Shown in pieces: positions 2,136 through 19,366 of a stretch of 64,000 bases of DNA. The stretch's first letter is position 1. Each line of letters begins with the position of its first letter. Source of the stretch: Alphaproteobacteria bacterium (GTDB lineage Bacteria > Pseudomonadota > Alphaproteobacteria > SP197); NCBI GenBank assembly GCA_965204785.1, contig OZ242015.1:1942538-2006537 (forward strand). Reading direction: 5' to 3'. A program made the position numbers and the translations under genes. Under the pieces are notes generated by a model. The model was not told where the DNA came from. It saw nothing but the letters and a program-made list of their open reading frames with translations, and made no database searches.

Positions 2136-3269
2136 CTATCCGTCGAGCGCGTCGTGAACCATCTTGTGGAAGAAATGGATGACGTGTTCGCCTTCGCCAC
2201 TGCGCTCGGGATCGACCATGATGCGTCCCTGGTCGTACCCCTTGGAGTGCAGCCCGCGCTGGACGGACTCACAGAGGGCCATGTCCTCCTTGCCCAGGAT
2301 GTTCTCAATATAGTTGCGCCGTTCCGGTGAATCGGTAGCGCCGGCCGGCGCGAAGCGATGGTTGCGGAACGCCGTGCGCGCCGGGCCGTCGGGGATCACC
2401 TTTGTCACCATCAGGTCACCGTTGCCGGGCAGGACGTTGATCGTGGTCGTGGGCCAGAGATACCAGAACATCGAACGCGGCATGACCGCGTCTTCGGCGA
2501 ACTCGTAGGCGCTGTTCCGCGACCGGGTCTTCGGTCCAAGCTGGCAGGCCGTGATGCCGTCGATCGTGTGTTCGTAGGCGCCCAGTTCGATGAGGTCGGC
2601 AAAGGCCGGATGCGCGCCGGCGCAGTGGTAACACTCGACATAATTGTCGACCACGACTTTCCAGCCCGCTTCGATGGGCCGCCCGCCGAAGTCATAGACG
2701 TCGGTGAGTTCGAGATCGTCCCAGTACGGGACCCTGGAGCGCATATCGGCTTCCAGATTGGGCGCCTGGTCGGCCAGCGGCGTTGCGTCGTCGTCCAGAT
2801 TGACAAACACCAGACCGGCCAGCACCTCGACCCGGATGGGGTTCAAGGCGAAGTCGGCCTTGTCGAATCCCTTGATTTTCTCGCAGTTGCGCGCCGCGCG
2901 CAGTTCGCCGTCCAGACCATAGGCCCAGGCGTGATAGGGGCAGGTGACGGTCGCTTTGAGCGTGCCCGAGCCCTGCACCAGTTCGTGGGCGCGGTGCTGG
3001 CAGACATTGTGGAAACCGCGCAATTCGCCCTTGCGATCGCGCACGACGAACACCGGCTGACCCGCCACGTCGCCGGCGACATAGGCGCCCGGTTCGACGA
3101 GCTGGCTGACATGACAATGGAAGGTCCACGACCTGGCGAAGATTTTCTCCTTTTCCAGCTCAAAGAACGCAGGATCGGTGTAGTAGCGCGAGGGTAGCGT
3201 GTAGGAGCGCTCGGGATCGCTGCCGAGCGGTTTGGGAAACGCAACGTTCAGAACATTGCTGCTGGCCAT
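2136..3269 (-). CDS. Rieske [2Fe-2S] non-heme-iron oxygenase alpha subunit (GbcA/CntA/stachydrine-demethylase-like).
   Basis: Rieske motif 'CQHRAHEL...CPYHAWAY'. N-terminus 'MASSNVLNVAFPKPLG...YYTDPAFFELEKEKIF' is typical of quaternary-amine Rieske oxygenases. Start set at the internal ATG (3269). Confidence 0.8.
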   Translation of the reverse strand: MASSNVLNVAFPKPLGSDPERSYTLPSRYYTDPAFFELEKEKIFARSWTFHCHVSQLVEPGAYVAGDVAGQPVFVVRDRKGELRGFHNVCQHRAHELVQGSGTLKATVTCPYHAWAYGLDGELRAARNCEKIKGFDKADFALNPIRVEVLAGLVFVNLDDDATPLADQAPNLEADMRSRVPYWDDLELTDVYDFGGRPIEAGWKVVVDNYVECYHCAGAHPAFADLIELGAYEHTIDGITACQLGPKTRSRNSAYEFAEDAVMPRSMFWYLWPTTTINVLPGNGDLMVTKVIPDGPARTAFRNHRFAPAGATDSPERRNYIENILGKEDMALCESVQRGLHSKGYDQGRIMVDPERSGEGEHVIHFFHKMVHDALDG

Positions 3270-3913
3270 GACGAAAAACTCCGGCTTTGGCGTGTTGTTG
3301 AACCATCGTACAACTTCCGTACAAAGCCGCCAAGCTGAGCGCATTCGACGTCACATGAGATCTATTGTGCGCGTTTGGCAGAAATCCTCAAACGCACGTA
3401 ATCGGCGCTCCAGTTTCCCGAGCTGCCGCACAGGCTGCGATGCAGCAGGTCGAGCGCCTCGTCATGGGCGGCCCCCTGGCGTTCATCCGCCGGAAAGGCG
3501 TCGAAGAACAGCCCGGCAAACGTCTGGATGCAGCCCGACATGCTCGTGGGCAGCGGCATCGGACGGGGGATGAGCCCGATGCCCGTCACCTCGAAGCCGC
3601 CCTTTCCAGGCGTGCACGATAGGCCTCCGGCGTGGGATGGAACCACGGGTTGACAGCGGTCACATCCACACCGTACCGGCCCGGCACCGCGTCGAACCCG
3701 GTATCGAACGCGAGCGCGGTGGCATCCATGACATAGGCATCAAAACCGTGCGCGGATGAAGCAGCGCCAGAACGGGACGCCCCGGAACCGGGACGAATCC
3801 GGCGTGATCCCGATAACCCCTGGCGTTCCAGGAATGTTGCTCTGCCACGGCGGTCGCTCTCTCGGCAGGAGGCGGGTATTATCCGTGGCTGGGACCGACA
3901 AGAAGGAAACGTC

Positions 3914-5524
3914 ATGCCCAAGGGAATGATCACAGGTCCCCAGCCGGATGCCGTCGAAGCCGGGGCGGAGGTGTTGCGGGCGGGCGGCAATGCGGTCGAT
4001 GCGGCACTGGCCTGCGCCTTCGTCCAGACCGTGGTCGATCCCATGATGTGCGGCATCGCCGGTTTCGGCGCCATGCATGTGCTGCTGCCGGACAAAGGCG
4101 TCCACGAGATCATCGACTTTCATGGCTGCGTGCCCGCCGCCGCTACGCCCGACATGTGGAAAGACCTGATCCTGGGCGAAACCGAGGACGGCTTCGGCTT
4201 CATCCTGAAGGGTGCGGTCAACGATCTGGGCTATCAGGCGATCACGACGCCGGGAACCCTGAAGGCCTTCGCCCAGGCCAGCGAGCGCTACGGCAGCATG
4301 CCGTGGGGCGATCTTCTGGAACGGGCCATTCACTATGCACGCGATGGATATGTGCTGACGCCCGGGGTGCACGGCTACTGGACCGCACCGGATTCGCCGG
4401 GCCGGGTGCGCGTGCTGGACCGCCTGGGCTATTCCGCCGAGGGGCGCGCCGTCTACTTCAATGAAGACGGCAGCGTGCGCCAGATAGGCGAGACGATCCG
4501 CAATCCCGGCATGGCCTCATCGCTGGAACAGATCGCGGGAGAAGGACCGGACGTCTTCTATGCCGGCGCGATCGCCGAGAAGATCGATGCCGACATGAAG
4601 GCAGGCGGCGGCCTGCTCTCGGCCCGCGATCTCGCCCACTACGAAACCCGGACCGATGCGCCGCTGTGGGGCAGCTATCGCGGCCTGACGTTCTCGACCA
4701 ACCGGCCGCCCGGCGGCGGGATCATGCTGATCGAGATGCTGAACATCCTGGAGAACTTCGATCTGGCGGCCATGGGGCACAACACGTCCGACTACATCCG
4801 CACGGTTTCCGAAGCCATGAAGATCGCCACCGCCGACAAGGACGCGCATGTCGGCGATCCCCGTTTTGTCGACGTGCCGCTCGACCGGCTGATGGACAAG
4901 GCCTATGCCGTCGGCCACGCCGAGGCGATCGCACGCGGCGAGAAGGCCCATGTCAAGCGCCTGGGCGGGATCGAATCACCCGGGACCACCCATGTCGTCA
5001 CCGCCGACAGTCAGGGCAACATCGTCACCATGACCCACACGCTGGGCATGATGTCGGGTGTCATCACCGATGGGCTCGGCTTCATGTACAACGGCGCGAT
5101 GGCGGTCTTCGATCCCCGTCCGGGCAGGGCGGGCTCGCTGGCGCCGGGCAAATCGCGCTTCAGTTCGCTCTGCCCCACCATCGTCTTCGACGGCGAACGA
5201 CCCATCCTGGCGCTCGGCGCTCCCGGCGGCACCCAGATCGCGATGGGCGTGCTGCAGGTCATGATGAATGTCATCGATTTCGGCATGACGCCCCAGGAAG
5301 CCATCCTGGCGCCGCGTTTCTCTGCGACCAGCGATGCCATAACGGTCACCGCCCGCATCCCGCGCTATCTCTGCGCCGAGCTGGAAGAGAAGGGTTATAC
5401 CGTCCAGCGCAGCATCTACAGCTATGCCATCGCCTCGGTTCACGCGATCGGCTTCGACGCGGCAGGCAATCCCAGCGGCGGCGCCGACATTCCCTATGGC
5501 GACGGCATGGCGTTGGCCGTCTAG
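3914..5524 (+). CDS. ggt: Gamma-glutamyltranspeptidase.
   Basis: GGT family conservation throughout; catalytic Thr segment 'SPGTTHVVTADSQGNIVTMTHTLG'. Confidence 0.9.
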   Translation: MPKGMITGPQPDAVEAGAEVLRAGGNAVDAALACAFVQTVVDPMMCGIAGFGAMHVLLPDKGVHEIIDFHGCVPAAATPDMWKDLILGETEDGFGFILKGAVNDLGYQAITTPGTLKAFAQASERYGSMPWGDLLERAIHYARDGYVLTPGVHGYWTAPDSPGRVRVLDRLGYSAEGRAVYFNEDGSVRQIGETIRNPGMASSLEQIAGEGPDVFYAGAIAEKIDADMKAGGGLLSARDLAHYETRTDAPLWGSYRGLTFSTNRPPGGGIMLIEMLNILENFDLAAMGHNTSDYIRTVSEAMKIATADKDAHVGDPRFVDVPLDRLMDKAYAVGHAEAIARGEKAHVKRLGGIESPGTTHVVTADSQGNIVTMTHTLGMMSGVITDGLGFMYNGAMAVFDPRPGRAGSLAPGKSRFSSLCPTIVFDGERPILALGAPGGTQIAMGVLQVMMNVIDFGMTPQEAILAPRFSATSDAITVTARIPRYLCAELEEKGYTVQRSIYSYAIASVHAIGFDAAGNPSGGADIPYGDGMALAV

Positions 5525-5841
5525 AGCATCGTCACCGCGACAGGCGGATGTGGCCGGCTCCCCGCACGATCGCGCACAGCAGATCGAGGGCAACATCCAG
5601 CACCGTCGATCCGACGTTGAACCGCAGGCCCGAGTTGGCGGCGTCCCCGAACGCCACGGCATGGTCGGCACGAAATTCGGGTCCCCAATCAGAATCAGCG
5701 GACGCGGTTTGGGTACGCTCATCCAGTGCGACCGGATTCAGACCGACCCTGGCAACAGCCGGACCCGGCTTCTCGTCGTGTTGCCGGTTCTCCGTCATGC
5801 CGTCAAAGATGAGACGCATGACCTGGTCAAGAAATTCCCAG

Positions 5842-5879
5842 CCCTTCACTACTTCATGGCGGCCGCCGTGAAGTAGTGA
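5842..5879. promoter_or_regulatory. 38-bp near-perfect palindrome (13-bp arms CTTCACTACTTCA/TGAAGTAGTGAAG around palindromic GGCGGCCGCC) between ggt and the acyl-CoA dehydrogenase gene. Terminator-like hairpin or operator.
   Basis: Read directly; no U-tract follows. Confidence 0.4.
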
Positions 5880-6146
5880 AGGCGCATCGCCCTGCTCTGA
5901 TCCGGTGAGGCGCGATAGATCGAACCGGCCAGAAAGTCTGTGGGATACGGGCAGGGTGGACCGCAGGGCAGACCGGGAAAAGCCGCGGTGCGCACGGAAT
6001 CGATCTCGAAGCAGCACTGTTCATCGATCAGAAGACATCAACGGTTTTCACGCAGGCAACCCTGCGGGTATGTCGAAACCTCATTTCCCGGCCTGAGGGG
6101 CGACAGGGCCGGGCCAGCGCGGCTATGGTCGGCTCGGGAGGACGGT

Positions 6147-7322
6147 ATGACCCAGGCGCGCGCCGCAGGCGAACCCGACGATCACCGCGACATCCGCGAC
6201 GCCGTGCGGCGTCTTTGCGAAAGGTATGACGGCGCGTACTGGCGCGGGAAGGATGCAGAAGACGCCTATCCCGCCGAGTTCGTCTCTGCCCTGACCGAAG
6301 CCGGGCTGCTGGCAGCACTCATCCCCGAGGAATTCGGCGGCAGCGGCCTACCGCTTTCGGCCGGCTGCGCGATCCTGGAGGAAATCCAGCGGTCGGGCGG
6401 CAACGGCGGGGCCTGTCATGCCCAGATGTACACCATGGGTACGGTGCTGCGGCACGGCTCGGACGCGCAGAAACAGATCTATCTGCCCGCCATTGCGTCG
6501 GGCGAACTGCGCCTCCAGGCCTTCGGCGTTACCGAACCGACCAGCGGCACCGACACCACCGCACTGCGCACCACCGCGCGCCGCGACGGTGAGCGTTACA
6601 TCGTCAACGGACAGAAGGTCTGGACGTCGCGGGCCGAGCATTCCGATCTGATGCTCCTGCTGGCACGCACGACGCCAAACGAAGAGACCGTGAAAAAAAC
6701 CGACGGTCTTTCGGTCTTCCTGATCGACATGCGTGAGGTCCTGGGCAAGGGCCTCATTATCCGGCCGCTGCCCGCCATGCTGAACCACGCCACGACCGAA
6801 GTTTTCTTCGACGCCATGGTCATCCCCGCGTCCAGCCTGATCGGCGAGGAGGGCAAGGGCTTCCGCTACATCCTTTCGGGTATGAACGCCGAGCGCATCC
6901 TGATTGCGTCCGAATGCATCGGGGATGCCCGGTTCTTCATCGACCGCGCCACGGCCTATGCGGGCGAACGCCAGGTCTTCGGCCGGGCCATCGGGCAAAA
7001 CCAGGGCATTCAGTTTCCCATTGCCCAGGCTTATGCCCATACCGAGGCCGCGGCCCTGATGGTCGCCGATGCGGCACGGCGCTATGAGGCTGGTGAACAG
7101 CCCGGCGCGCAAGCCAACATGGCCAAGATGCTGGCCGCCGACGCCTCCTGGGAGGCGGCCGAAATGTGCCTCCAAACCCATGGCGGCTTCGGTTTCGCGC
7201 GCGAATACGACATCGAACGCAAGTGGCGCGAGGCACGTCTCTACCGCACCGCGCCGATCTCGACCAACCTGATCCTGGCCTACCTTGCCGAGCACGTGCT
7301 CGGCCTGCCGCGGTCCTACTGA
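6147..7322 (+). CDS. Acyl-CoA dehydrogenase.
   Basis: ACAD N-terminal, middle and C-terminal domain conservation ('GVTEPTSGTDTTALRTTARRDGERYIVNGQKVWTS', 'ARLYRTAPISTNLILAYLAEHVLG'). Confidence 0.85.
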   Translation: MTQARAAGEPDDHRDIRDAVRRLCERYDGAYWRGKDAEDAYPAEFVSALTEAGLLAALIPEEFGGSGLPLSAGCAILEEIQRSGGNGGACHAQMYTMGTVLRHGSDAQKQIYLPAIASGELRLQAFGVTEPTSGTDTTALRTTARRDGERYIVNGQKVWTSRAEHSDLMLLLARTTPNEETVKKTDGLSVFLIDMREVLGKGLIIRPLPAMLNHATTEVFFDAMVIPASSLIGEEGKGFRYILSGMNAERILIASECIGDARFFIDRATAYAGERQVFGRAIGQNQGIQFPIAQAYAHTEAAALMVADAARRYEAGEQPGAQANMAKMLAADASWEAAEMCLQTHGGFGFAREYDIERKWREARLYRTAPISTNLILAYLAEHVLGLPRSY

Positions 7323-8180
7323 TGACACTGCCGCTGGGGGGCTTCCGGTGGTCGCTATCGAGCAGGCCGTCGTGGGCCGGTCTGCACCTGCAGATCGACC
7401 GACACGGGCATGCGCGTGATCAGGATCGAGTGCGCAGAAGGCGACTTCGCGCGGAGCTGCGACAGCGTCGTGGAGGGCGAGAGCGCCTGTTTCGTCTGGC
7501 TCAACCGTGGCAAGGAGTCCGTGACGCTGGATCTGAAGTCGCCGACCGACCGCGATCTGGTGCCAGCCGTGATGAAGCGCTCCGACGTGCTGGTCGAAAA
7601 CCTGAAACCGGGATCGCTGAAACCGCGGGGGTCGCATGGGCCAACTAACAACGGCGTCGACGGCTTGTCCGGCCATGCCGATCTCAGGCAGATGGCCGTG
7701 GGAACGCTCCACGGCTCCGCGAGACTTTTCCACACCGGCCGCACGCCACGACGGCGCACACCGGCCCGGCCGCGGCGCAATCGGAGGCGCTGGCCTGGCT
7801 GTTCCTTGCAGTGTGCCGCCGGAGCCACCGTTTCGGACGGCATCCTGACCCTGGAAGGGGTGAACCCGGTAACCCTGGCCTTCACGAACCGCCCGCAGCG
7901 GATGGTCACGCACGTCGATACGCAGGCCTTTGCCGAGACGGTCTGGAGCGAAGGCGAGAACAGTTTCGCCGCCGGTCCTCCCAACGCGGTGATCGTTTAC
8001 CGCGAGGACTGCGAAACGAAATCGGCAGTGGTGGGACCTGCCGAACTGAGGATGGCCCAAGGCGGCATCCTGACCTGTGCGGTCAGCGTGTTCGACGGCG
8101 TTCTTCCTCCTGCCATGAAGCAGCCCGGGATCATCATCGGCAACACCGGGGGGCGATGGTGGAGGCGGCGCGGCGGGTGA
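7322..8180 (+). pseudogene. CoA-transferase family III (CaiB/BaiF-like) gene. ATG overlaps the ACAD stop; frameshift near 7400-7410 at a GGG run; distal part unrecognisable.
   Basis: Frame A 'MTLPLGGFRWSLSSRPSWAGLHLQIDRHG' resembles 'GIRVLDLSRVLAGP..LLADLGAEVIKIE'. It continues in frame B 'RVIRIECAEGD...ESACFVWLNRGKESVTLDLKSPTDRDLVPAVMKRSDVLVENLKPGSLKPRG', the family III N-terminal signature. Confidence 0.5.
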
Positions 8181-8222
8181 CCGGCGCTTTCTCACGACGG
8201 CCGGGACGCAGGTCCTCCATCG

Positions 8223-8825
8223 TCAGCCGACAGTCCAGTGGCCGAGCACCTCGTCAGTCGTGCCAATCTCGATCTGGTCTTCGAAGCATCGGTAGATATG
8301 GGCGAGCGTCGCCTCGTGCGAGGCCGGGTTCGAGCCGTGGCAGGCATCGCTCACCACGATCACGCGGTAGCCCCGGTCCATGGCGGTCATGACCGTGCCC
8401 AGCACGCAGACATTGGTCTCCACGCCCGTGCAGATCACCGTGGAGCAGTCGAGTTCGTCAATGATGGCGCGGAACCCGGGGCTTTCGAACGCCGAATAGG
8501 TCGGTTTGCTGGCGACACGCGCGGGCGGTACGAAGCCCTTCAGCTCATCCATGAGCTCGATCACGGCGGGATCCATCACGGCCGTCGTCACGCTCTGCCA
8601 GCGCCGGTAGTAGACCTTCCAGTGACCCAGCGCATCCTCCGCATGCTCCGGCGTCGTGAACTGGGTGAACACCGTGCGCGCGGGCGCATGTTCGGTCAGG
8701 CGCAGGATGTTGGGCAGGATTTCAGGAATGGACGGCGTGTGCCAGTCGGTCCTGTCGGCAAACAGTCGCTGCATATCGACGCAGACATGGACGGCATCGG
8801 GGCCGATGGGCTGGATTTCCTGCAT
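8223..8825 (-). CDS. Isochorismatase-family cysteine hydrolase (amidase-type).
   Basis: 'CTGVETNVCVLGTVMTAMDRGYRVIVVSDACHG' is the catalytic-Cys region of isochorismatase-like hydrolases. Confidence 0.8.
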   Translation of the reverse strand: MQEIQPIGPDAVHVCVDMQRLFADRTDWHTPSIPEILPNILRLTEHAPARTVFTQFTTPEHAEDALGHWKVYYRRWQSVTTAVMDPAVIELMDELKGFVPPARVASKPTYSAFESPGFRAIIDELDCSTVICTGVETNVCVLGTVMTAMDRGYRVIVVSDACHGSNPASHEATLAHIYRCFEDQIEIGTTDEVLGHWTVG

Positions 8826-9872
8826 TCAGCCCTCCATCACGACCGTGTGTTCGGGCAACCAGGTGATCGCAACTGCCTCACCTGCATCGAACATACGGTC
8901 ACCCGCGTTCTGCTGGAACGTGCGCATGGGCCCCGCGGCGGTCTCGACGATGTAGGTGACGCTGGTGCCCGAGAACACGCGCTGGGTCACCGTGCCCTCG
9001 ACGCGGTTGCCGTCTGAAATGTCGTCCTTTGCCGCCAGGCGCATCTTTTCAGGTCGCACCGCCAGCGTCGCGCGCGCGCCCGCCAGCGGTGATGTCGTCT
9101 TCAGGGCGCCCAGGCGCTCGACCGTGACGCGGTCGCCCTCGACCGTGCCTTCCATGAAGTTGGCATCGCCCAGGAAACCGGCGGCAAAGCGCGTTCGCGG
9201 ATGTTCGTAAACCTCACCCGGCGCACCGATCTGGATCAGCCTGCCCTCGTCGATGATCGCGATCTGGTCGGACAGCGTGAGCGCCTCTTCCTGATCATGC
9301 GTGACGAAGATCGCCGTGATTCCCACCGTACGCTGGATCTGTTTGAGCTCGATCTGCATCTCCTGGCGCAGACGCTTGTCGAGTGCACCCAGCGGCTCGT
9401 CGAGCAGCAGCACCCTGGGCTCGGTGACGAGCGCCCGGGCGAGCGCCACGCGCTGCTGCTGGCCGCCCGAAAGCTGCCTGGGCTTGCGCCGGTCCAGCCC
9501 CGAAAGACGTACGAGGTCGAGCAGTTCGCCGACTTTTTTGCGCGCGTCCGACTTCGAGACCCCGCGCACCGAAAGACCGAACGCAATGTTGTCGAACACG
9601 GTCATGTGCGGAAAAAGCGCATAGTTCTGGAAGACCATGCCGATATCGCGCTTGTGCGCGGGAATGTGGGCGACATCGACGCCGTCGATCAGGATCTCGC
9701 CCTCCTCGGGCTCGACGAACCCGGCGATGGAACGCAGCAAGGTCGTCTTGCCGCTGCCGCTGGGGCCCAGCAGGGCGAAAAACGAACCGTCGGGGAAATC
9801 GAGCGAGACGTTATCGAGCGCCTTGAGGTCGCCGTACCGCTTGGTGACGTTGCGTGCGGAGACTTCGCTCAT
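8826..9872 (-). CDS. ABC transporter ATP-binding protein (PotA/PotG-like, polyamine/opine type).
   Basis: Walker A 'GPSGSGKTT', signature 'LSGGQQQRVALARAL', Walker B 'LLLDEP'; C-terminal TOBE-like domain. Confidence 0.85.
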   Translation of the reverse strand: MSEVSARNVTKRYGDLKALDNVSLDFPDGSFFALLGPSGSGKTTLLRSIAGFVEPEEGEILIDGVDVAHIPAHKRDIGMVFQNYALFPHMTVFDNIAFGLSVRGVSKSDARKKVGELLDLVRLSGLDRRKPRQLSGGQQQRVALARALVTEPRVLLLDEPLGALDKRLRQEMQIELKQIQRTVGITAIFVTHDQEEALTLSDQIAIIDEGRLIQIGAPGEVYEHPRTRFAAGFLGDANFMEGTVEGDRVTVERLGALKTTSPLAGARATLAVRPEKMRLAAKDDISDGNRVEGTVTQRVFSGTSVTYIVETAAGPMRTFQQNAGDRMFDAGEAVAITWLPEHTVVMEG

Positions 9873-10669
9873 CGTTCGCCTCCGAACTTCGAAATACGCG
9901 CGAACACCAAGAACGCCGTCATGGAAACGACGATCATGATGGTGGAGATGGCGTTGACCTCCGGCGTGAATCCCTTGCGGATCGCCGAGAAGATCTCCAC
10001 CGGCAGGACCGAGATACCCGGAGCCGCCAGGAAATAGGAAATGACGAACTGATCAAACGAGACGGCAAAGGCAAAAAGCGAGGCGGCCACGATGCCCGGC
10101 GCCATGACCGGCACGGAAACGCGCAGGAACGTCTGCAGCGGCGGCGCACCCAGGCTGGCCGCGGCTTCCTCAAGCTCGGGCCCGAAGCTCGCCAGCCGCG
10201 CGCCCACGACGATCACGACATAGGGGAGCGAGAGCGCGACGTGGCCCAGCAGCATGGCATGCAGGCCCCGCCCCACGCCGGTCCAGAAGAACAGCACCAG
10301 CATCGAAACGCCGATGATCAGCCAGGGGATCGTGATGGGCGGCAACAGCAGAAGCTGCATCAGGTTGCGCCCGCGGAAGCGGAAGCGTGCGAAGGCATAG
10401 GCCGCCATGGTGCCCAGCGTGGTCGCAATCACCGTGTTGACGAGCGCGAGCAGCACCGAATTGACGCTTGCCGTCAGCAGCCGTTCGTTGCTTGCGAGAT
10501 CGACATACCAGCGCGTCGAAAACGCGAACGGCAATTGGTAGTGCATGGAATCGTTGAAGCTCATCAGAGCCAGAACGAAGATAGGCACGTAAAGGAAGAA
10601 CAGCACCAGGAAGAGGAAAAACCTCCCGAAGCCGTCGCCCATGCGGCACAGGATGCGGTGCGTGTTCAT
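9869..10669 (-). CDS. ABC transporter permease (PotC-like).
   Basis: Six-TM permease; EAA-type loop 'EEAAASLGAPPLQTFLRVSVP'. Confidence 0.8.
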   Translation of the reverse strand: MNTHRILCRMGDGFGRFFLFLVLFFLYVPIFVLALMSFNDSMHYQLPFAFSTRWYVDLASNERLLTASVNSVLLALVNTVIATTLGTMAAYAFARFRFRGRNLMQLLLLPPITIPWLIIGVSMLVLFFWTGVGRGLHAMLLGHVALSLPYVVIVVGARLASFGPELEEAAASLGAPPLQTFLRVSVPVMAPGIVAASLFAFAVSFDQFVISYFLAAPGISVLPVEIFSAIRKGFTPEVNAISTIMIVVSMTAFLVFARISKFGGER

Positions 10670-11529: not shown

Positions 11530-11605
11530 GGTCCTGTTGGCCCCGATACGAAACGGGCCTCTCTCTCGAAGGGAGAAAGAGGCCCGATTTCACGAAAACG
11601 TCCGA

Positions 11606-12661
11606 TTACTCGGCGAAATACGCCTTGGTCTCGGTCCAGATCTCCAGGAAGGTCTCACGCTGCTCGTCGGTGAGCGGCGCCATGAACTGGAGGTTGGCCG
11701 TGGCCTCGGGATCGCCCATCACGGCACGGTTGAAGAAGTCTTCCGGCAGCTGGTTGATCGCCTCGTTGTTGGCCGATGCCGGCGCGCCGACTTCCATGTC
11801 CCAGCGCACGTAATGCTCGGGACTTACCATGTAGTCGATGAACTTCCGGGCGCCGTCCGGATTGGGCGCATCGGCCGCGATGGAAAGACCGTCGAGCCAG
11901 GCGATGGCGCCCTCCTGCGGGATCATGAAGCCGACCGGCATGTCGAACGACTTGGCGCTGCGCGAGGCCGAACCCGACCAATAGGTCGAAACGTCGAAGG
12001 TGTCGGCGGTGAACTCCTTGTTCCATTCGTCTTCGGACGACCAATAGGTGCGAACCTGAGGCTTCAAGGCACGCAGCTTCTCGCGGATGGCGTCGAGATC
12101 GTGAGGATTGTTCATGTCCTGGCCGGTTGCCAGAGCGGCGAACGAGACGTTCTCGACCGAGTCGTCACGCAGCCCGACATTGCCGGCGTACTTGGGATCC
12201 CACAGAATCTCTACCGTGTTGCCCGGTTCCACCTCGTTCATGTCATAGGCGATGGAGGTCAGGCCCCAGGTCCACGCAATTCCGTAGAGATTGCCTTCAT
12301 AAGTGAACTCCACCGCGTCGCGCAGTCCCGGAGAAAGATCATCGAAGTTGGAAATGGCCTGCGGATCAATGGGCTGGATCAGCCCTTCTTCGGCAGCCTG
12401 GCCGGTGAACGCGCTGTTGATCAGCACGACGTCATAAGCGCCGGGACTGGTACGCAGCTTGGTGAGCATTTCCTGCTCGGAATTGAAGTTGTCGTGAACC
12501 ACCGTATAGCCGGTGGCGGCTTCGAACGCCTCCAGGGCCCAGGGCTCATCCGTACCGTAGCCCTGCCAGTTCAGCACCCGCACTTCGCCATCAGCGGCCG
12601 CCTGTCCGGCCACCAAGGCCAGAGCCAGGGCAACCGAAGCCAACAATCCTGTCTTGCACAT
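11606..12661 (-). CDS. Periplasmic substrate-binding protein of the PotD/PotF family; start at internal ATG (12661) with signal peptide.
   Basis: 'MCKTGLLASVALALALVAGQAAADG' signal peptide, then PotD-fold conservation. The long upstream ORF extension is antisense overlap. Confidence 0.8.
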   Translation of the reverse strand: MCKTGLLASVALALALVAGQAAADGEVRVLNWQGYGTDEPWALEAFEAATGYTVVHDNFNSEQEMLTKLRTSPGAYDVVLINSAFTGQAAEEGLIQPIDPQAISNFDDLSPGLRDAVEFTYEGNLYGIAWTWGLTSIAYDMNEVEPGNTVEILWDPKYAGNVGLRDDSVENVSFAALATGQDMNNPHDLDAIREKLRALKPQVRTYWSSEDEWNKEFTADTFDVSTYWSGSASRSAKSFDMPVGFMIPQEGAIAWLDGLSIAADAPNPDGARKFIDYMVSPEHYVRWDMEVGAPASANNEAINQLPEDFFNRAVMGDPEATANLQFMAPLTDEQRETFLEIWTETKAYFAE

Positions 12662-12820: not shown

Positions 12821-13606
12821 ATGACAAACCAGATGGCGGAACTGAGCTGGACGGGGCTGGAGGAACGCATCGCGGGTGGCGCGGTCGTGCTGCTCCCGGT
12901 CGGCGCGAACGAAAGCCACGGACCCCACCTGCCGTTGGGCACCGACCGCATCTGTGCCTGCGGTTTCGCCAAGGAGGTCGCCGGACGCATCGATGCCGTC
13001 ATTGCACCGGAAATCCCCTGGGGCTTCCGTTCCCAGATCAGGACGGGCGGCGGCAGCCACTGGGTAGGCAACATCGGGCTTGATGCCGAGGTTCTGGTCG
13101 GTCTGGTGCGCGCGACGGTCCGCGAGGTGGCGATCAAGGGCATGACGAAGATCGCCATCGTCAACGGCCATTACGAGAACGTCTGGTTTATCACCGAAGG
13201 CTGCGAGCTGGCCGTGCGCGATCTCAATGCGCAGCCCGGCGGCGAGCTCGTCATCCAGACTGCCTCCTGGTGGGACATGGTGGGCGACGACGATCTCTCG
13301 GCCATCTTCCCCAACCCGCCCGAAAGCATCGAATACGAACACGGCGCGCTGCTGGAAACCTCGATCATGATGGCGATGCGCCCGGACCTCGTCGCCACCG
13401 ACAGGTTCCCCCGGCACGGCTTCAAGGTGTTCCCGCCCTACGACGTGTTTCCGCAGGACCCGGCACGCGCCAACGAGACCGGCTCGCTTGCCACCTCCAA
13501 CGGCGCCAACGCGGAAGCGGGCGCGCAACTCATTGCCCTGATCGCCGACCGCATGGCCGAACACATCCGCACCGAACTCAACGCCGACCCGGCCCGTGGC
13601 GCTTGA
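12821..13606 (+). CDS. Creatininase-family amidohydrolase (creatinine amidohydrolase-like). An alternative ATG lies at 12794.
   Basis: 'LLPVGANESHGPHLPLGTDRI' matches the creatininase metal-binding motif (VGSxEQHGPHLPLxTD). Confidence 0.8.
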   Translation: MTNQMAELSWTGLEERIAGGAVVLLPVGANESHGPHLPLGTDRICACGFAKEVAGRIDAVIAPEIPWGFRSQIRTGGGSHWVGNIGLDAEVLVGLVRATVREVAIKGMTKIAIVNGHYENVWFITEGCELAVRDLNAQPGGELVIQTASWWDMVGDDDLSAIFPNPPESIEYEHGALLETSIMMAMRPDLVATDRFPRHGFKVFPPYDVFPQDPARANETGSLATSNGANAEAGAQLIALIADRMAEHIRTELNADPARGA

Positions 13607-13855
13607 GGGTCTGCATGGCGTTGTCACCGGCACGGCATCCGAACCTGGGCGTGGCACACGGTCCGGTCGATATCGGCGCGACCCCGCGAGCGCACGTGCC
13701 ATGGTGGCCGACGTCGTCCGTTTACCTGCCCGACGACAGCGGCCGCTGGATCAGCGGCACCTCCCTCAACGTGACGGGCGGGCTGTGGCGGGGGCAACCG
13801 GGACTCCCAAAAATTCGGGAATTATATACGATCGTGCCCAAGATGGAGGTTTGAA

Positions 13856-13990
13856 ATGGCGCAGAAAGCACCCGGAAAATCGCACCGCAAGGGCATAAGT
13901 CCGAAGAAACTGTTTCAAATGTTCCCCGACGACGCAATCTCTGAGAATCCGATTGCACCTGACGGATTGCCCAGCGGAGCGCGGTCATGA
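13856..13990 (+). pseudogene. 44-aa remnant of an IS1595-family transposase N-terminus (Zn_Tnp_IS1595-like); ATGA overlap with the downstream methyltransferase start.
   Basis: 'MAQKAPGKSHRKGISPKKLFQMFPDDAI...' resembles the 'APGK.YRKGISL.ELF.MFPD' N-termini of IS1595-family transposases (from memory). Strong RBS GGAGG 7 nt upstream. Confidence 0.4.
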
Positions 13991-14622
13991 GCCACAACGA
14001 CGCCGCAACCGGTCTATCCAGATTTCTCGGTTCTCAAAAGTTCTCAACGGTCATGGCCGATCCGCCATGGCGCTTTACCAACCGAACCGGGAAGATGGCA
14101 CCAGAGCACAAGCGGCTTGCCAGATACCCGACCATGACGCTTGAAGACATTTGCGCCCTTCCAGTCGCCGACTTCATGGAAGATCGTGCGCATTGTTATC
14201 TTTGGGTACCGAATGCGCTTCTTCCCGAAGGGTTGCGGGTCATGTCCGAATGGGGCTTCACATACAAATCAAACATCATTTGGCACAAGATAAGGAAAGA
14301 TGGCGGATCGGACGGGAGGGGCGTCGGGTTCTATTTCCGCAACGTCACGGAAGTTCTTCTGTTCGGAATACGCGGCAAGAATGTCAGAACGCTTCAACCG
14401 GGGCGGCGGCAGATCAACCTGTTTGGGACGCGAAAGCGGGAACATTCTCGCAAGCCCGACGAACAATATGACATCATCGAGAGTTGCAGTTGGGGGCCAT
14501 ATCTGGAACTGTTCGGGCGTGGTCGCCGGGACAACTGGACGGTCTGGGGAAACCAGGCGTCCGACGATTACAAACCAACCTGGGACACGTACAAGTACAA
14601 TTCTGCGGTGGCGGCAGAATGA
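13987..14622 (+). CDS. MT-A70 family DNA methyltransferase (N6-adenine/N4-cytosine), the M subunit of a type II R-M pair.
   Basis: 'VMADPPWRF' DPPW catalytic motif near the N-terminus; 'GFYFRNVTEVLLFG' distal. Confidence 0.8.
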   Translation: MSHNDAATGLSRFLGSQKFSTVMADPPWRFTNRTGKMAPEHKRLARYPTMTLEDICALPVADFMEDRAHCYLWVPNALLPEGLRVMSEWGFTYKSNIIWHKIRKDGGSDGRGVGFYFRNVTEVLLFGIRGKNVRTLQPGRRQINLFGTRKREHSRKPDEQYDIIESCSWGPYLELFGRGRRDNWTVWGNQASDDYKPTWDTYKYNSAVAAE

Positions 14623-14628
14623 ACGCGC

Positions 14629-15327
14629 ATGTCTGACAGTGAGATAAATCTGTTTTCTGAAAACATCAAGCGGAAGTTTGAGATTCACAGCTACCGGAAC
14701 GCGGCGTCCATTCTGGCCAACAGCTTTCCTAACCGGTTCTCGCATGTGGTTGGCGCCTTGGAGAGGTTCGAGATCACCACGGAGATGATCAGGCGGCCCG
14801 GCGGCAGCAAAGGCGAAATCGCCCGATACGTGGACACGCTGTTCCCGTCACCAAATTGGATTGAAACCCGGATTTCCGCCGATCTGATGGTTCGACTCGA
14901 ACATGCGAAGCAAAGCGGACACATCCTTCATGAATATGTCAGAAAAGGGTTTTTGGATGGTCACAGGATAGATTTCGTTTCTGGAAAAGTCGCGCTTGAT
15001 CTAGAGTGGAACAGCAAAGATCAAACATACGATCGGGACTTGTATGCGTTTTCGGCCTTCTACGACGCTGGCGCAATAGACGTTGGAATCATACTGACAC
15101 GTGGTTCATCCTTGGATAATGCGTTCTTTCAGAGTCTCGGGAAGGTTCTAAACAAAGACGGAACCGAAGGCACCGAAGAAGTGTACAAGAAGTTTGGGGC
15201 ATCAACCACATGGATGGGGAAATTGCTTTACAGGCTTGAGGCCGGGCGCAACGGCGGTTGCCCTGTGCTGGCGATTGGAATCACACCTGAGTGTATTGGA
15301 GGAAAAAATGGAAAAACGGAAATCTGA
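14629..15327 (+). CDS. Putative type II restriction endonuclease, BamHI/BglII/BstYI fold.
   Basis: 'RIDFVSGKVALDLEWNSKD...AIDVGIILTRG' parallels the BglII 'IDFGKRDTLVEVQFSN...VAIIITKG' and BamHI D...ExE active-site architecture (from memory; inference). It sits immediately 3' of the MTase. Confidence 0.5.
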   Translation: MSDSEINLFSENIKRKFEIHSYRNAASILANSFPNRFSHVVGALERFEITTEMIRRPGGSKGEIARYVDTLFPSPNWIETRISADLMVRLEHAKQSGHILHEYVRKGFLDGHRIDFVSGKVALDLEWNSKDQTYDRDLYAFSAFYDAGAIDVGIILTRGSSLDNAFFQSLGKVLNKDGTEGTEEVYKKFGASTTWMGKLLYRLEAGRNGGCPVLAIGITPECIGGKNGKTEI

Positions 15328-15450: not shown

Positions 15451-15480
15451 AGTAAGAGAGATGTACCTCCCCTTACATCA

Positions 15481-17532
15481 TTACATCACATGCACCAGCC
15501 GCAGGGCGTCGTAGATGGAGGCGTGGATGTTGCGGCTTTCGACGGCATCACCCAGGCGGAAGAGTTGGAAGGCGCCGTCGGGGTGGGCGCGGATCTCCTG
15601 GGGCCGGTTCTCGATCAGCGCGTCGTAATCGACCCCGCCGCGGTTCACGGACTCTTCCTTGAGTTCAAAGTAGAGTTCATCCAGCGGCAGGGTGGCGTGT
15701 TCCACGACGACCTGATCGACCAGGCGCTCGTCATGGGCCGTCCCGGAGAAATCGCTGTAGAGCGTGACCCTGAGTTTGTTGCCTTCCCGCGCGATGCCGC
15801 TGACGCGGCTGAGAATGGTGATCGTCACGCCATGGGTCTGGAAGAACTCGGCGTAGGGCGCGTGGGTGAGCGCGCCCAGTTCCGGGGCGAAGGTCCGCTC
15901 GGGCGAGACGATCTCCACCTTCGCGCCCTTGTCGACGGCAAGCCACGCGGCCTGCATGCCGGGCTGGTGGCCGTTGTCGTCGAACACCAGCACATCCTCG
16001 GCAGGCGCGACCTCGCCCGAGAGGATATCCCAGGAGCTCACGGCAAGATCCGCGCCCTCCTCCACGATGTCCTTGTTGGGCAAGCCGCCGGTGCAGACCA
16101 GCACGATATCGGGATCGAGCGCGCGCACGTCGTCGGCCGCGGCATAGGTGTTGAGCCGGAGGTCGATGCCGAGCTTTTCCAGACGCGCGACGCGCCAGTC
16201 GACGACGCCGATGATATCCCTGCGATTGGGCGTTCGTGCCGCCAGGCGCACCTGGCCACCGGGCTGATCGGAGGCTTCGAACACCGTCACATCGTGCCCG
16301 CGTTCTCCAGCGACCCGCGCCGCCTCGAGACCTGCGGGGCCCGCACCGACGATGACGAACTTCCGCTTTTCCCCTGCGTTGTCGGCGACGATCTGGGGCA
16401 TGGTCGCCTCGCGTCCCGTGGAGGGGTTGTGCACGCACAGCGCGCCGGTGCCCGCATAGACGCTTTCCAGGCAATAGGTCGCGCCCACGCAGGGCCGGAT
16501 TTCCTCCTCGCGCCCCTCACGCACCTTTTTCACGATATGGGGATCGGCAATGTGGGCGCGCGTCATGCCGACCATGTCGAGCTTGCCCTCGGCGATGGCG
16601 TGCCGGGCGGTGGCGATATCGGCGATCCTGTTGGCGTGGAACACGGGGAACTTCGTCTCGGCACGCACCTCGCCGGCAAAGTCGAGATGGGGTGAGGCCT
16701 TCATGCCCGCGACGGGAATGATGTCGGTCAGCGCGCGGTCATGATCGATATGGCCCTTGATGACATTCAAGAAATCGACCTTGCCCGTGGCGATGAAACG
16801 CCGGGCGATTTCCACGCCTTCGTCACGGCCATAGCCCTTTTGCCAGGCTTCGTCGCAGGACATGCGGATGCCGACGATGAAGTCAGGGCCCACGTTTTCG
16901 CGCACGCTGTCGAGCACGCGCAGGGCAAAACGCATGCGGTTCTCCAGGCTGCCGCCGTAGTTGTCGCTGCGCCTGTTGGTGGCGGGCGACCAGAACTGGT
17001 CCATGAGATGGCCGTAGGCCTCGAACTCGATGCCGTCCATGCCCGCCTCTTTCATGCGGGCAGCCGCCGTGCCGTAATCCTTCACGACACGTTCGATGTC
17101 CCAGTCCTCCATTTCCTTCGGGAAGGCGCGGTGGGCAGGCTCGCGCACCATGGAAGGCGCCAGGACGGGCAGCCAGTGTTCCTTGTTCCAGTTGGTGCGG
17201 CGGCCCAGGTGCGTGAGCTGGATCATCACTGCCGTGCCTTCGTCGTGGCAGAGATCGGTCAGACGTTTGAGGCCGGGGATCACCTCGTCCTTCCAGGCCT
17301 GCATGTTCATGAACGCCTGGGCCGAATCCCTGGCGACCACGGTGGACCCGGCGATCATCGTCATGGCGATGCCGCCCTTGGCCTTCTCGTGGTGGTAGCG
17401 GATGTAACGGTCGCCCGCGAGGCCGTCCTCGGTATAGCCCGGCTCATGCGCGGTCGACATGATGCGGTTCTTCAGCGTGAGATGTATGAGCCGATAAGGC
17501 TGCAGAAGGGGATCGCCGTCGGGATCGTACAT
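15481..17532 (-). CDS. NADH:flavin oxidoreductase of the TMADH/DgcA/StcD family (OYE-like FMN barrel, 4Fe-4S site and FAD/NAD(P) domain).
   Basis: Cys cluster 'CVGATYCLESVYAGTGALCVHNP'; 'FVIVGAGPAGLEAA' dinucleotide fold; 683 aa as in DgcA, histamine and trimethylamine dehydrogenases. Confidence 0.8.
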   Translation of the reverse strand: MYDPDGDPLLQPYRLIHLTLKNRIMSTAHEPGYTEDGLAGDRYIRYHHEKAKGGIAMTMIAGSTVVARDSAQAFMNMQAWKDEVIPGLKRLTDLCHDEGTAVMIQLTHLGRRTNWNKEHWLPVLAPSMVREPAHRAFPKEMEDWDIERVVKDYGTAAARMKEAGMDGIEFEAYGHLMDQFWSPATNRRSDNYGGSLENRMRFALRVLDSVRENVGPDFIVGIRMSCDEAWQKGYGRDEGVEIARRFIATGKVDFLNVIKGHIDHDRALTDIIPVAGMKASPHLDFAGEVRAETKFPVFHANRIADIATARHAIAEGKLDMVGMTRAHIADPHIVKKVREGREEEIRPCVGATYCLESVYAGTGALCVHNPSTGREATMPQIVADNAGEKRKFVIVGAGPAGLEAARVAGERGHDVTVFEASDQPGGQVRLAARTPNRRDIIGVVDWRVARLEKLGIDLRLNTYAAADDVRALDPDIVLVCTGGLPNKDIVEEGADLAVSSWDILSGEVAPAEDVLVFDDNGHQPGMQAAWLAVDKGAKVEIVSPERTFAPELGALTHAPYAEFFQTHGVTITILSRVSGIAREGNKLRVTLYSDFSGTAHDERLVDQVVVEHATLPLDELYFELKEESVNRGGVDYDALIENRPQEIRAHPDGAFQLFRLGDAVESRNIHASIYDALRLVHVM

Positions 17533-17658: not shown

Positions 17659-18987
17659 ATGTCCGAAACCATCAACGTCGAAATTCTTCCCAGCGACGAC
17701 AACACCAACGGGTGGAGCCGCATCCTGCCCCCGCGCATGCCCAAACCGCCGCTTGAGGGCGGGGTGCGCGCCGACTGGGTCGTGCTGGGTGCCGGCTGGG
17801 CCGGGCTGGCGGCCGCGCGCCGTCTCTCCGAGAACCGGCCCGACGACAGCATCGTTCTGGTCGACGCCGGTCAGGCCGGCGAGAACGCGTCGGGGCGCAA
17901 CAGCGGCTTTGCCATCGATCTTCCCCACAACATCGGCAGTTCCATGGAGGAGCTGGAGGGCAGCCACCGCTTCATGGCCCTGGCGCGCGCGGCCATCGAG
18001 CATCTCGAGGGTGCGGTGGACGAGCACGGCATCGCGTGCAACTGGAGCCGATGCGGCAAGTATCACGCCTCGCATTCGGCGCGCGGCAGGGGAGAGGTGC
18101 TCGAACCCTTCGCCAAGGAGCTCGAAGCGCTGGGCGAACCGTTCCGCTGGCTCGACAAGGAGGAACTCCGCGCCGAGATCGGCACGCCCTATTACCACGC
18201 CGCCATCCATACGCCGGGCTGCGTCCTGATGAACCCCGCCGCCCTGTGCCGCGGCCTCGCCGACAGTCTGCCTTCCAACGTCACGCTCTATGAGAACACG
18301 CCGGTGACGCGCCTGGAGCAGGGCAACGGCATCACGCTCGCCACGCCCCGGGGCAGCATCTTCGCACCGCGCATGATATTGACGACCAACGGCTTTGCCG
18401 AACAGTTCGGGTATTTCACCAACCGCCTCATCCCCATCGCCGCCTATGCCAGCCTGACCCGACCGCTGAGCGCCGAGCAACGCGCCGCGCTGGGCGGCCA
18501 TGACGACTGGGGCCTCACACCGGCCAACGCCATCGCGGGCGTGACCATGCGTTTTACCCGGGACCACCGCATCCTGATCCGCCAGGGGTTCCAGTACAAA
18601 CCCGGCTTCCGGGTATCCGATGCCGACAGGACGCAGGCCCGCGTCCGGCACATGCAGTGCTTCCGCGAGCGCTTTCCCATGCTGCCCGACGTCACCTTCG
18701 ACCACACCTGGACCGGCATCATCTGCCTGTCGCGCAACGACGCACCGGGCTTCGGCAAGGTTGCTTCGAACGTCTGGGCCAGCGTGTGCCAGAACGCCGT
18801 GGGCGTGACCAAGGGCACGATCGGCGGCATTCTCGCGGTCGACATGGCCTGCGAGCGCGACAACGAACTGATGGGGTTCATGGAGTCCCTGGGCGTGCCC
18901 GACCTTCTGCCCCACAAGGCCCTTCTGAAGCTGAGCATGCCCGCCCGGATCGCGTGGGACGTCTGGTCGAACCGCCACGAAAAGTAA
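17659..18987 (+). CDS. FAD-dependent oxidoreductase (DAO family, PuuB/OrdL-like gamma-glutamyl-amine oxidase).
   Basis: 'WVVLGAGWAGLAAARRL' FAD-binding fold; DAO-family conservation. Confidence 0.8.
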   Translation: MSETINVEILPSDDNTNGWSRILPPRMPKPPLEGGVRADWVVLGAGWAGLAAARRLSENRPDDSIVLVDAGQAGENASGRNSGFAIDLPHNIGSSMEELEGSHRFMALARAAIEHLEGAVDEHGIACNWSRCGKYHASHSARGRGEVLEPFAKELEALGEPFRWLDKEELRAEIGTPYYHAAIHTPGCVLMNPAALCRGLADSLPSNVTLYENTPVTRLEQGNGITLATPRGSIFAPRMILTTNGFAEQFGYFTNRLIPIAAYASLTRPLSAEQRAALGGHDDWGLTPANAIAGVTMRFTRDHRILIRQGFQYKPGFRVSDADRTQARVRHMQCFRERFPMLPDVTFDHTWTGIICLSRNDAPGFGKVASNVWASVCQNAVGVTKGTIGGILAVDMACERDNELMGFMESLGVPDLLPHKALLKLSMPARIAWDVWSNRHEK

Positions 18988-19000
18988 GGACCGCCGGACC

Positions 19001-19366
19001 ATGGCCCGCAAGTACGACTGCAGCAAATGTCCAGCCTATTGCTGCTCCTATACCCGCATCATCGTCGAGGATGCCGACATCGAACGGCTGTCCGACCATT
19101 TTGGCCTCAAGCCCAGGGAAACGCGCAAACGTTTCACCAGGAAAGGCGAGGAAAAAGGCGAACGCATCCTGCGTCACCAGAAGGACGAGCATTACACGAC
19201 GATCTGCCAGTTCATCGATCCCGGGACCCGCGGCTGCACGGTCTATGAGGCCCGCCCGGCGATCTGCCGCGAATTCCCCGGCGAGGGGCGCTGCGGCTAC
19301 TACGACTTCCTGACCTTCGAGCGCAACGCCCAGGAAGATCCGGACTGGGTCGCGACGACAGGCTAG
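19001..19366 (+). CDS. YkgJ-family Zn/Fe-chelating (CxxCxxCC) domain protein.
   Basis: 'CSKCPAYCCS...GCTVYEARPAICREFP'. Confidence 0.7.
   Translation: MARKYDCSKCPAYCCSYTRIIVEDADIERLSDHFGLKPRETRKRFTRKGEEKGERILRHQKDEHYTTICQFIDPGTRGCTVYEARPAICREFPGEGRCGYYDFLTFERNAQEDPDWVATTG

Follow-up and report, generated by a model that had tools for sequence, protein, structure and literature searches.

Do genes for amine-degrading enzymes that crowd into 17 kb make up one metabolic pathway? This question is raised by positions 2136–19366 of a 64,000-nucleotide stretch of contig OZ242015.1 (assembly GCA_965204785.1; the whole stretch is hereafter called the window) from an alphaproteobacterium, in which genes for a Rieske oxygenase, a gamma-glutamyltranspeptidase (GGT), an acyl-CoA dehydrogenase (ACAD), an isochorismatase-family hydrolase, a Pot-type ATP-binding cassette (ABC) importer, a creatininase-family amidohydrolase, a 683-aa OYE/Fe-S/FAD enzyme, a DAO-family oxidase, and a YkgJ-type metalloprotein lie together. 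A sequence-only reading of this stretch had suggested a creatinine–sarcosine–glycine route and a gamma-glutamylated-amine route, with the caveat that no described pathway uses this exact set. The caveat is correct, and the broad assignment to the catabolism of amines and N-methyl amines holds. As for the question itself, the evidence tips, in our judgment, towards several independent, partly decayed gene modules that are common only to close marine relatives, and we are inclined to regard the stretch as a rather ordinary accessory region and not as one new creatinine or gamma-glutamyl-amine pathway.

Gene calls were based on the listing of open reading frames (ORFs) together with Pfam and NCBIfam scans. 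All of the genes named in the sequence-only reading are present, at or near the places where it had put them; a restriction-modification (R-M) pair at 13987–15327 and the remnants of a methyltransferase gene (3374–3839) and of an SDR gene (13596–13791) had been overlooked. Every component comes from a known family, and several are so named in public annotation (creatininase, N-methylproline demethylase). The close homologues of the OYE enzyme are labelled as Rhodospirillaceae or Rhodospirillales metagenome-assembled genomes (MAGs), some of the clusters carrying a Tara source tag, and the host is probably a marine alphaproteobacterium of a Rhodospirillales-type group.

The explanation that we favour, and that taken as a whole we hold to be somewhat more probable than its negation, is a lineage-specific accessory block in a marine Rhodospirillales-type chromosome, which would comprise at least five separate units and not one pathway. 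It rests on the pattern of synteny and the decay events, which, like the gene identities and the motifs, are directly observed. The comparison covered about 175 related loci (denoted L001 and so on): 80 genome loci with creatininase homologues, 80 metagenome loci with homologues of the OYE enzyme, long contigs with orthologues, and annotated plasmids. The block is syntenic in close relatives only (marine Rhodospirillales with an OYE enzyme at least 82% identical) and breaks up in the next-closest genomes (76–79%). Conservation of the neighbourhood, which the sequence-only reading had put forward as a check, is thus seen among close relatives and lost beyond them.

The order Rieske–GGT–ACAD–hydrolase/ABC–OYE–DAO is found again in L173 and, in part, in L172, L090, and L001. 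The L173 locus runs through DAO, OYE, two unrelated genes, the series substrate-binding protein (SBP)–permease–permease–ATPase–hydrolase, ACAD, TauD–GGT, and methyltransferase–Rieske; TauD and the methyltransferase are intact, and there is no creatininase. Its proteins are 82% (OYE), 82% (GGT), 84% (ACAD), 81% (SBP), 71% (hydrolase), and 72% (Rieske) identical to those of the window. The same backbone is found in L172, with GGT and Rieske decayed and again no creatininase. In L001, L088, and L091 (OYE 91–92%), the order is hydrolase/ABC, creatininase–SDR, OYE, DAO–YkgJ, and ccm, and L001 carries a gene for a GH63-like glycosidase in place of ACAD, GGT, and Rieske. L090 (OYE 86%) is missing the four ABC genes and has a GH63 remnant after the hydrolase gene, followed by ACAD, a DUF427 gene, TauD, and GGT. 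In L004/L005, where creatininase and OYE are both 79% identical, creatininase is isolated, at a distance of about 230 kb from the OYE/DAO pair, and that pair still adjoins ccm; in the window, the minus-strand ccmI/H/F genes come after the CxxCxxCC gene, and the block adjoins ccmFHI. The locus L174, from a genome with an OYE enzyme of 76%, holds ABC, hydrolase, and ACAD genes, with no OYE, DAO, GGT, or Rieske gene there.

Compared with L173, L001, and L090, the window lacks TauD and GH63, and most of the methyltransferase and SDR genes are gone. Neither GH63 nor TauD has left a trace in the window. Conversely, the window holds a CoA-transferase fragment and the R-M pair, which none of these three loci has at that site. 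The decay and the insertions indicate that the region is a site of turnover and not a polished set of operons. The block is inherited within a narrow clade, creatininase is a variable insert and the most variable element of the block, and the five-gene importer/hydrolase operon alone acts as a unit over a long evolutionary distance. Such a mosaic of known families calls for caution against inferring a pathway from co-location alone.

The importer/hydrolase operon lies on the minus strand. It encodes a PotD-like periplasmic SBP of 351 aa with a signal peptide (11606–12661; SBP_bac_8; the best PDB matches are putrescine/spermidine-binding proteins), two ABC permeases (10666–11529 and 9869–10669, both with Pfam BPD_transp_1), a PotA-type ABC ATPase (8826–9872; ABC_tran and TOBE_2; 373 bits against a cut-off of 355.6 for the potA subfamily model TIGR01187), and, as the last gene, an isochorismatase-family cysteine hydrolase of 200 aa (8223–8825; Pfam Isochorismatase, 126 bits). 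Genes overlap by 4 bp, and the ATG of the hydrolase gene follows immediately after the stop codon of the ATPase gene. A strong hairpin (11554–11586) separates the SBP gene from the first permease gene; 9 of the pairs in its 14-bp stem are GC, and a short run rich in T comes after it. Partial intra-operon terminators are common after binding-protein genes, and the hairpin fits this pattern; it alone was worth noting in the promoter and terminator scans, which otherwise gave matches no more frequent than in shuffled sequence.

With E. coli PotABCD the system shares the four-component layout, an ATPase above the potA cut-off, and an SBP with three of the four acidic and four of the five aromatic polyamine-binding residues. 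Eight of the 12 aligned PotD ligand residues are kept (W34, Y37, S83, D168, E171, W229, W255, and D257), and four differ (T35Q, E36G, Y85F, and Y293A). Unlike PotABCD, the SBP scores far under the PotD/PotF equivalog cut-offs (147 bits with the PotD model against 582) and has glycine in place of E36; unlike Pot systems, the operon always ends with the cysteine hydrolase gene, often with a gene for a GH63-like glycosidase after or before it. The description of the importer as Pot-type is upheld for the layout, the ATPase, and most of the cation-binding residues. The residues retained and lost suggest that the ligand would be a cationic amine, although not spermidine itself.

The hydrolase has in common with the isochorismatase-like amidohydrolases (N-carbamoylsarcosine amidase, BiuH, GuuH, and nicotinamidase) the fold family and the Asp-Lys-Cys triad (D17/K107/C140), which are features at the family level only. 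Unlike these enzymes, it reaches at most 36 bits with any solved structure, and none of its 17 solved-structure matches is named CSHase. Its scores with NCBIfam equivalogs do not exceed 45 bits (BiuH), far under the cut-offs. The orthologue group (44–100% identity) is defined instead by fusion to the PotD-type ABC operon: the hydrolase gene comes directly after the ATPase gene in L001, L172, L173, L174, L176, L177, and the Rhizobium locus L168 (R. ruizarguesonis pSym). In six of these genomes (L172, L173, L174, L176, L177, and Rhizobium) the operon occurs without creatininase, which assigns the hydrolase to the ABC operon and not to creatininase.

Across L172–L177, the SBP is 77–81% identical. 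The Rhizobium proteins are more divergent (SBP 46%, permeases 54% and 59%, ATPase 54%, and hydrolase 44%), and at that locus (2594–9600) the operon has upstream of it a trehalase/GH63-family glycosidase gene, whose product shares 42% identity with the L001 enzyme. In L176 (6156–12858), a GH63/MGH1-like glycosidase gene follows the hydrolase gene with a 4-bp overlap; in L177 (6190–11823), an orthologue of the window Rieske gene (64%) follows 69 bp after it. The GH63 or Rieske partners suggest a common substrate class for the operon. Literature searches for creatininase with isochorismatase and an ABC transporter, and for GH63 with isochorismatase, found no description of the operon; one paper records, without explaining it, that an archaeal MAG has a creatininase-like gene with a biuH-like gene nearby. 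As an uncharacterised importer and cysteine hydrolase with GH63/Rieske partners, spread from marine Rhodospirillales to Rhizobium symbiosis plasmids, the operon is one of the useful pieces of this region.

We propose that the PotD-type importer would take in a cationic amine-type compound and that the translationally coupled cysteine amidohydrolase would strip an amide or carbamoyl group from it. With its five genes, this third unit, counted along the stretch, would be the only tightly coupled one, and a creatininase-family ring-opening amidohydrolase would have been inserted divergently beside it in one sub-clade. We infer the substrates, here and for all of the other genes, and likewise the coupling inside this unit and inside the OYE/DAO/YkgJ unit described below. 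In a bolder reading, the operon would be at the heart of a catabolic system, not yet described, that degrades a cationic marine metabolite bearing an amide group. GH63, the group Va Rieske oxygenase, and creatininase would then be lineage-specific accessory steps, and an N-methylated amino-acid product would be finished in this clade by the HpbA-like demethylase and the DAO enzyme; we consider this unlikely. In a variant of it, the creatininase-family and isochorismatase-family enzymes may convert a cyclic guanidine or ureide to sarcosine independently of ATP.

The 683-aa enzyme (15481–17532, minus strand) consists of an Oxidored_FMN domain (residues 9–343) and a Pyr_redox_2 domain (from residue 388). 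Its Fe-S motif is C348-x2-A351-x2-C354-x11-C366 (C348-V-G-A351-T-Y-C354 ... C366), in which the second cysteine is replaced with alanine. This substitution defines cluster 2 of the 2-enoate reductases, a member of which, OYEBi, demethylates N-methylproline (PMC11759058). The enzyme is 58–60% identical to proteins that PGAP names HpbA, and HpbA has been genetically validated in P. denitrificans (PMC3950512). It scores 788–901 bits with the listed HpbA/StcD-type homologues, 229–260 with FadH/NCR, 166–172 with histamine dehydrogenase (HADH), and 162 with trimethylamine dehydrogenase (TMADH). The motif, the identity to HpbA, and the much lower TMADH/HADH scores led us to classify it as an HpbA/StcD-type enzyme and a putative N-methyl-amino-acid demethylase. 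Its earlier placement among N-methyl demethylases of the dimethylglycine, histamine, and trimethylamine dehydrogenase family is thereby narrowed: the demethylase family stands, and a TMADH/HADH type (cluster 3) is ruled out by the alanine, where those enzymes keep four cysteines, and by the low scores.

With HpbA/StcD of Paracoccus denitrificans and Sinorhizobium meliloti, and with OYEBi of Burkholderia insecticola, the enzyme shares the FMN, Fe-S, and FAD/NAD(P) architecture, the length (about 680 aa), and the modified motif. The surroundings are different: unlike in the HpbA/StcD context, no gene for a ProU-type betaine transporter, a clade Vb Rieske demethylase, or a TetR/LysR regulator lies beside it, and it is paired, in a narrow clade only, with the DAO oxidase and the YkgJ-type protein. 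Homologues at 57–65% identity are found beside ProU-type transporters (named hpbA in Paracoccus), beside carnitine genes (Sinorhizobium), and in proline-betaine or MttB contexts, and with amine contexts so varied the substrate cannot be read from identity. In L049 (1198–5120), for example, a homologue (64%) comes directly after genes for an MttB-family methyltransferase of the non-pyrrolysine type and an enoyl-CoA hydratase; within 13 kb the contig also carries genes for a creatininase-family protein (34% identical) and for an ACAD (72% identical).

Divergent from the OYE gene across a 126-bp spacer is the gene for the DAO-family FAD oxidoreductase (17659–18987, plus strand; 442 aa; Pfam DAO, 168 bits), and 13 bp after it begins the gene for the CxxCxxCC (YkgJ-type) Fe/Zn protein (19001–19366, plus strand; 121 aa; Pfam CxxCxxCC, 46.6 bits). 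The latter follows DAO also in L001, L089, L090, and L172. The DAO protein matches no NCBIfam equivalog and no PDB entry at 1e-8, and its homologues at 55–56% occur with a EutQ-type cupin, a TRAP transporter, and TetR. Pairing of DAO with OYE was seen only in the clade whose OYE enzyme is at least 79% identical; a DAO gene was present in none of the 74 loci with an OYE enzyme 56–68% identical, many of which are short contigs. Two loci with an OYE enzyme of 79% show further neighbours: in L005 (12330–15053) an ammonium-transporter gene and then a glutamine-synthetase-like gene come after the OYE gene, and in L093 (12317–13741) an ammonium-transporter gene comes after it, with SDR and Fic-domain genes inserted between DAO and OYE. 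We propose that the HpbA/StcD-type flavin/Fe-S N-demethylase, the divergent DAO-type amine oxidase, and the YkgJ-type metalloprotein would form the fifth unit, in which an N-methylated amino acid would be oxidatively dealkylated and then oxidised. This natural pairing of an HpbA-type CxxAxxC demethylase with DAO and YkgJ could help to trace the electron route of a poorly understood enzyme class.

At the left end of the stretch, the Rieske gene (2136–3269, minus strand) encodes a group Va (CntA-like) Rieske non-haem-iron oxygenase alpha subunit of 377 aa with Pfam Rieske and Ring_hydroxyl_A domains; alignment to the 72%-identical L173 orthologue places its true start at 3269. The best PDB match is the carnitine monooxygenase CntA (285 bits, full length). 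The motifs are CQHRAH...CPYHAW and DNYVECYHCAGAHP, with D323 kept, and CntA of Acinetobacter baumannii (PDB 6Y8J) has in common with the window enzyme the Rieske and mononuclear-iron ligands, E205, the C206/C209 pair, Y203, Y225, and N270. The pi-cation residue Y203, the bridging Glu, and the Cys pair of a group V oxygenase bear out the earlier description of the enzyme as quaternary-amine type. Tyr203 marks clade Va (C–N cleavage) as against the demethylase clade Vb (PMC7948474), and the window enzyme has Tyr at this position and not the Asn of clade Vb (GbcA and Stc2). The residues of the carnitine pocket (F258, Y295, Y315, and F319, with Y225 and N270; PMC7948474) were compared by alignment to CntA; unlike CntA, the window enzyme carries F258S, Y295H, Y315I, and F319L, with Y225 and N270 retained.

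No CntB-type reductase gene flanks positions 2136–3269 or stands beside the orthologues in L173 or L177. Unlike CntA, the Rieske gene is in relatives co-transcribed with a gene for an S-adenosylmethionine (SAM)-dependent methyltransferase (L173) or placed after the importer/hydrolase operon (L177). The substrate of the enzyme is most likely a quaternary-ammonium compound that is not carnitine, which it would cleave or oxidise, served by a reductase encoded elsewhere; as an orphan, it would constitute the first unit of the block. The methyltransferase gene is a frameshifted pseudogene with an internal deletion in the window (3374–3839, minus strand): in tblastn, the intact 256-aa L173 protein matches only in aa 4–33, 148–175, and 175–248, in differing frames. 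L173, L172, and L090 have an intact copy between GGT and Rieske, and the L173 copy lies directly upstream of Rieske on the same strand. Positions 1–2000 of the window have a GC content of 0.537 and contain a truncated HisKA-domain ORF (121–645) and ORFs with no family match. Synteny with L173 stops at the Rieske gene, so that this flank looks like another junction or insertion point.

The Rieske and OYE enzymes together recall the degradation of stachydrine or hydroxyproline betaine. The importer would supply a betaine-like substrate, the Rieske oxygenase would take the first N-alkyl group, and the HpbA-like enzyme the next methyl group, a logic of Rieske enzyme plus flavoenzyme for which HpbB/HpbA is the established precedent (PMC3950512). 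In the window and in L173, the two classes of enzyme are encoded within one syntenic block, with a Rieske fragment in L172, and the Rieske orthologue behind the L177 operon and the OYE homologue adjoining the MttB-family methyltransferase in L049 are consistent with such a route. We nevertheless find it improbable. Tyr203 points to C–N cleavage of the carnitine/choline type, no reductase gene is present, and a distance of about 12 kb, in which unrelated operons and pseudogenes occur, separates the Rieske gene from the OYE gene. In addition, L001 has OYE, DAO, and the importer with no Rieske gene within 10 kb, L005 has OYE and DAO without Rieske, and the SBP is PotD-type and not ProX/OpuA-type.

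The creatininase-family gene (12821–13606, plus strand) encodes a binuclear-metal amidohydrolase of 261 aa that passes the TIGR04448 equivalog cut-off by a narrow margin (248.4 bits against 235), and it is divergent from the ABC operon across a 159-bp spacer. With P. putida creatininase CrnA (PDB 1J2T/1V7Z/3A6x), the protein shares about 41% identity over the full length, the metal ligands E34, H36, D45, H120, and E183, and the residues H178, Y121, E122, and W154 (alignment to 3A6E; the metal ligands and H178 are kept across 22 homologues). Unlike CrnA, it has isoleucine in place of the lid residue W174, which is also missing in other proteins named creatininase (P. corrugata type), and it falls into a sub-clade of its own (NIGL, SWWD, and PPxSIEYEH motifs) with at most 45% identity to characterised enzymes. 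L001, L088, L090, and L091 have the gene; the corresponding block of L172 and L173 does not. An SDR gene follows it intact in L001, L003, and L090. In the window this partner has decayed: the 241-aa L001 SDR matches the remnants (13596–13791, plus strand) at aa 1–21, 48–57, and 218–240 only. The nearest outgroup creatininase (55%), in L006 (7449–10771), comes after genes for an M20-family peptidase/amidohydrolase and an NMT1/THI5-type binding protein; the same genome has the importer/hydrolase/GH63 operon (L176) about 1.2 Mb off.

The position of this gene invites a creatinine route, in which creatinine or a cyclic analogue (N-methylhydantoin or glycocyamidine) would be imported by the ABC system, opened by creatininase, de-amidinated or de-carbamoylated to sarcosine by the hydrolase, and demethylated to glycine by the HpbA-like enzyme and/or DAO. 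The score above the cut-off and the conservation of all metal and catalytic residues favour it, as does the divergent placement of creatininase beside the operon in the window, L001, L088, and L091; the OYE family, moreover, demethylates N-methyl amino acids (PMC3950512, PMC11759058). Elsewhere, distant creatininase homologues stand beside other isochorismatase-family genes in five of the 80 genomes (adjacent in L010, L013, L020, and L027, and near in L022), and the L006 enzyme has the M20-family hydrolase as a neighbour. These isochorismatases, however, are only 27–34% identical to the window hydrolase, which follows the ABC operon through genomes without creatininase and is remote from all solved isochorismatase-family structures. 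L172 and L173 retain the block without creatininase, the lid tryptophan is replaced, and the SBP pocket looks polyamine-like, whereas creatinine would not be expected to behave as a strong cation. The accompanying enzymes are missing as well: neither the window nor the close relatives examined showed a gene for creatinase, creatinine deaminase, or N-methylhydantoinase, the gene annotation of the window region, L001, L004, and L090 includes no creatinase or sarcosine oxidase, and genes for creatinine deaminase and HyuA/B hydantoinase are absent from the region. The creatinine–sarcosine–glycine sequence, as it had been drawn in the sequence-only reading, blends two distinct known pathways, and we did not uphold it; we regard the creatinine route as quite unlikely.

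Between the Rieske gene and the importer/hydrolase operon lie what would be the leftovers of two small operons, our proposed second unit: GGT minus its TauD partner, and ACAD with a dead CoA-transferase. The GGT-family Ntn-hydrolase gene (3914–5524, plus strand; 536 aa; Pfam G_glu_transpept, 396 bits) narrowly passes TIGR00066 (363.7 bits against 357.85), and its product has the GTTH processing motif. By inspection, the N-terminus MPKGMITGPQPDAVEAG shows no hydrophobic leader and so no obvious signal peptide. A TauD-family dioxygenase gene follows GGT in L173, where GGT is 82% identical, and in L090. The ACAD gene (6147–7322, plus strand; 391 aa; three ACAD Pfam domains) reaches no NCBIfam equivalog cut-off, with 161 bits for the CaiA model against 221 for the acryloyl-CoA reductase model; several other acyl-CoA dehydrogenases are at least as close to the enzyme as CaiA is. 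It is 84% identical in L173 and 72% in L049, where the gene belongs to a CoA-transferase/PrpD/ACAD operon adjoining genes for an HpcH-family lyase and a LysR regulator. The family III CoA-transferase fragment of the window (7377–7616, plus strand), recognised by alignment to the L049 protein, is a pseudogene in which just aa 40–119 of 405 survive at 54% identity, and NCBIfam matches about 70 residues of it. Of the caiA/caiB-like pair that had been proposed here, the ACAD and the decayed CoA-transferase are real, and the CaiA label is looser than had been stated.

A Puu-type gamma-glutamylated-amine route, in which the Pot system would import a polyamine, GGT would handle gamma-glutamyl intermediates, and DAO would be the gamma-glutamyl-amine oxidase, has GGT-family, DAO-family, and PotD-type genes and the ammonium-transporter and glutamine-synthetase-like neighbours of OYE in L005 and L093 in its favour, but it is very improbable: the DAO protein, earlier labelled PuuB-like, has just 25% identity (78 bits) to E. 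coli PuuB; no glutamine-synthetase-like, aldehyde dehydrogenase, or GATase-type hydrolase gene (PuuA/PuuC/PuuD-like) occurs in 2136–19366; and the GGT gene, whose product has no obvious signal peptide and which is paired with TauD in relatives, lies 12 kb from DAO and is separated from it in relatives. GGT is not known to be part of the Puu pathway.

Several observations weigh against a block of separate units. L173 preserves the complete Rieske-to-DAO order at 71–84% protein identity, and L172 and L090 preserve part of it, which leaves room for some functional link among the modules. The Rieske orthologue directly after the hydrolase gene in L177 hints that the first and third units may have a compound in common. 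In five related contigs, the 159-bp divergent promoter region serves creatininase on one side and the ABC operon on the other, and there are the isochorismatase-family neighbours (27–34% identical) of distant creatininase homologues in five of 80 genomes. No regulator gene was seen in the block, and most of the loci compared are metagenome contigs. If the block were one pathway after all, marine bacteria would have in it a new way of processing creatinine-like or quaternary-amine nitrogen.

The remaining unit of the block of separate modules that we favour would be the R-M pair, next to the SDR remnant. It consists of genes for an MT-A70 methyltransferase (13987–14622, plus strand; Pfam MT-A70, 98 bits; PADLOC MTase_II, 294 bits) and a BglII-like endonuclease (14629–15327, plus strand; Pfam Endonuc-BglII, 136 bits), which lie on the same strand with a 6-bp gap between creatininase and the OYE gene. 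Their GC content is 0.556 against about 0.64, the sole low-GC patch in the region, and the pair is absent at this site from every relative examined (L001, L088, L090, L091, L172, and L173). The relatives of the methyltransferase are plasmid-borne in unrelated phyla. The pair is a low-GC type II insertion that was probably acquired horizontally. A 44-aa ORF beside it (13857–13990), tentatively taken for the N-terminus of an IS1595-family transposase, had no Pfam match and no plasmid tblastn match and was dropped. The sequence AGATCT is not depleted in the window (15 occurrences against 9.6 expected), and RGATCY is mildly low (53 against 73 ± 8.6 expected).

Other members of the amine/osmolyte theme are found elsewhere in the window. 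Positions 28453–33789 and 59332–60477 hold genes for a BKACE-family beta-keto-acid cleavage enzyme, a GMC oxidoreductase, a luciferase-like monooxygenase, a RidA-domain protein, and a second Rieske oxygenase, the last of which is 37% identical to the L173 orthologue of the first.

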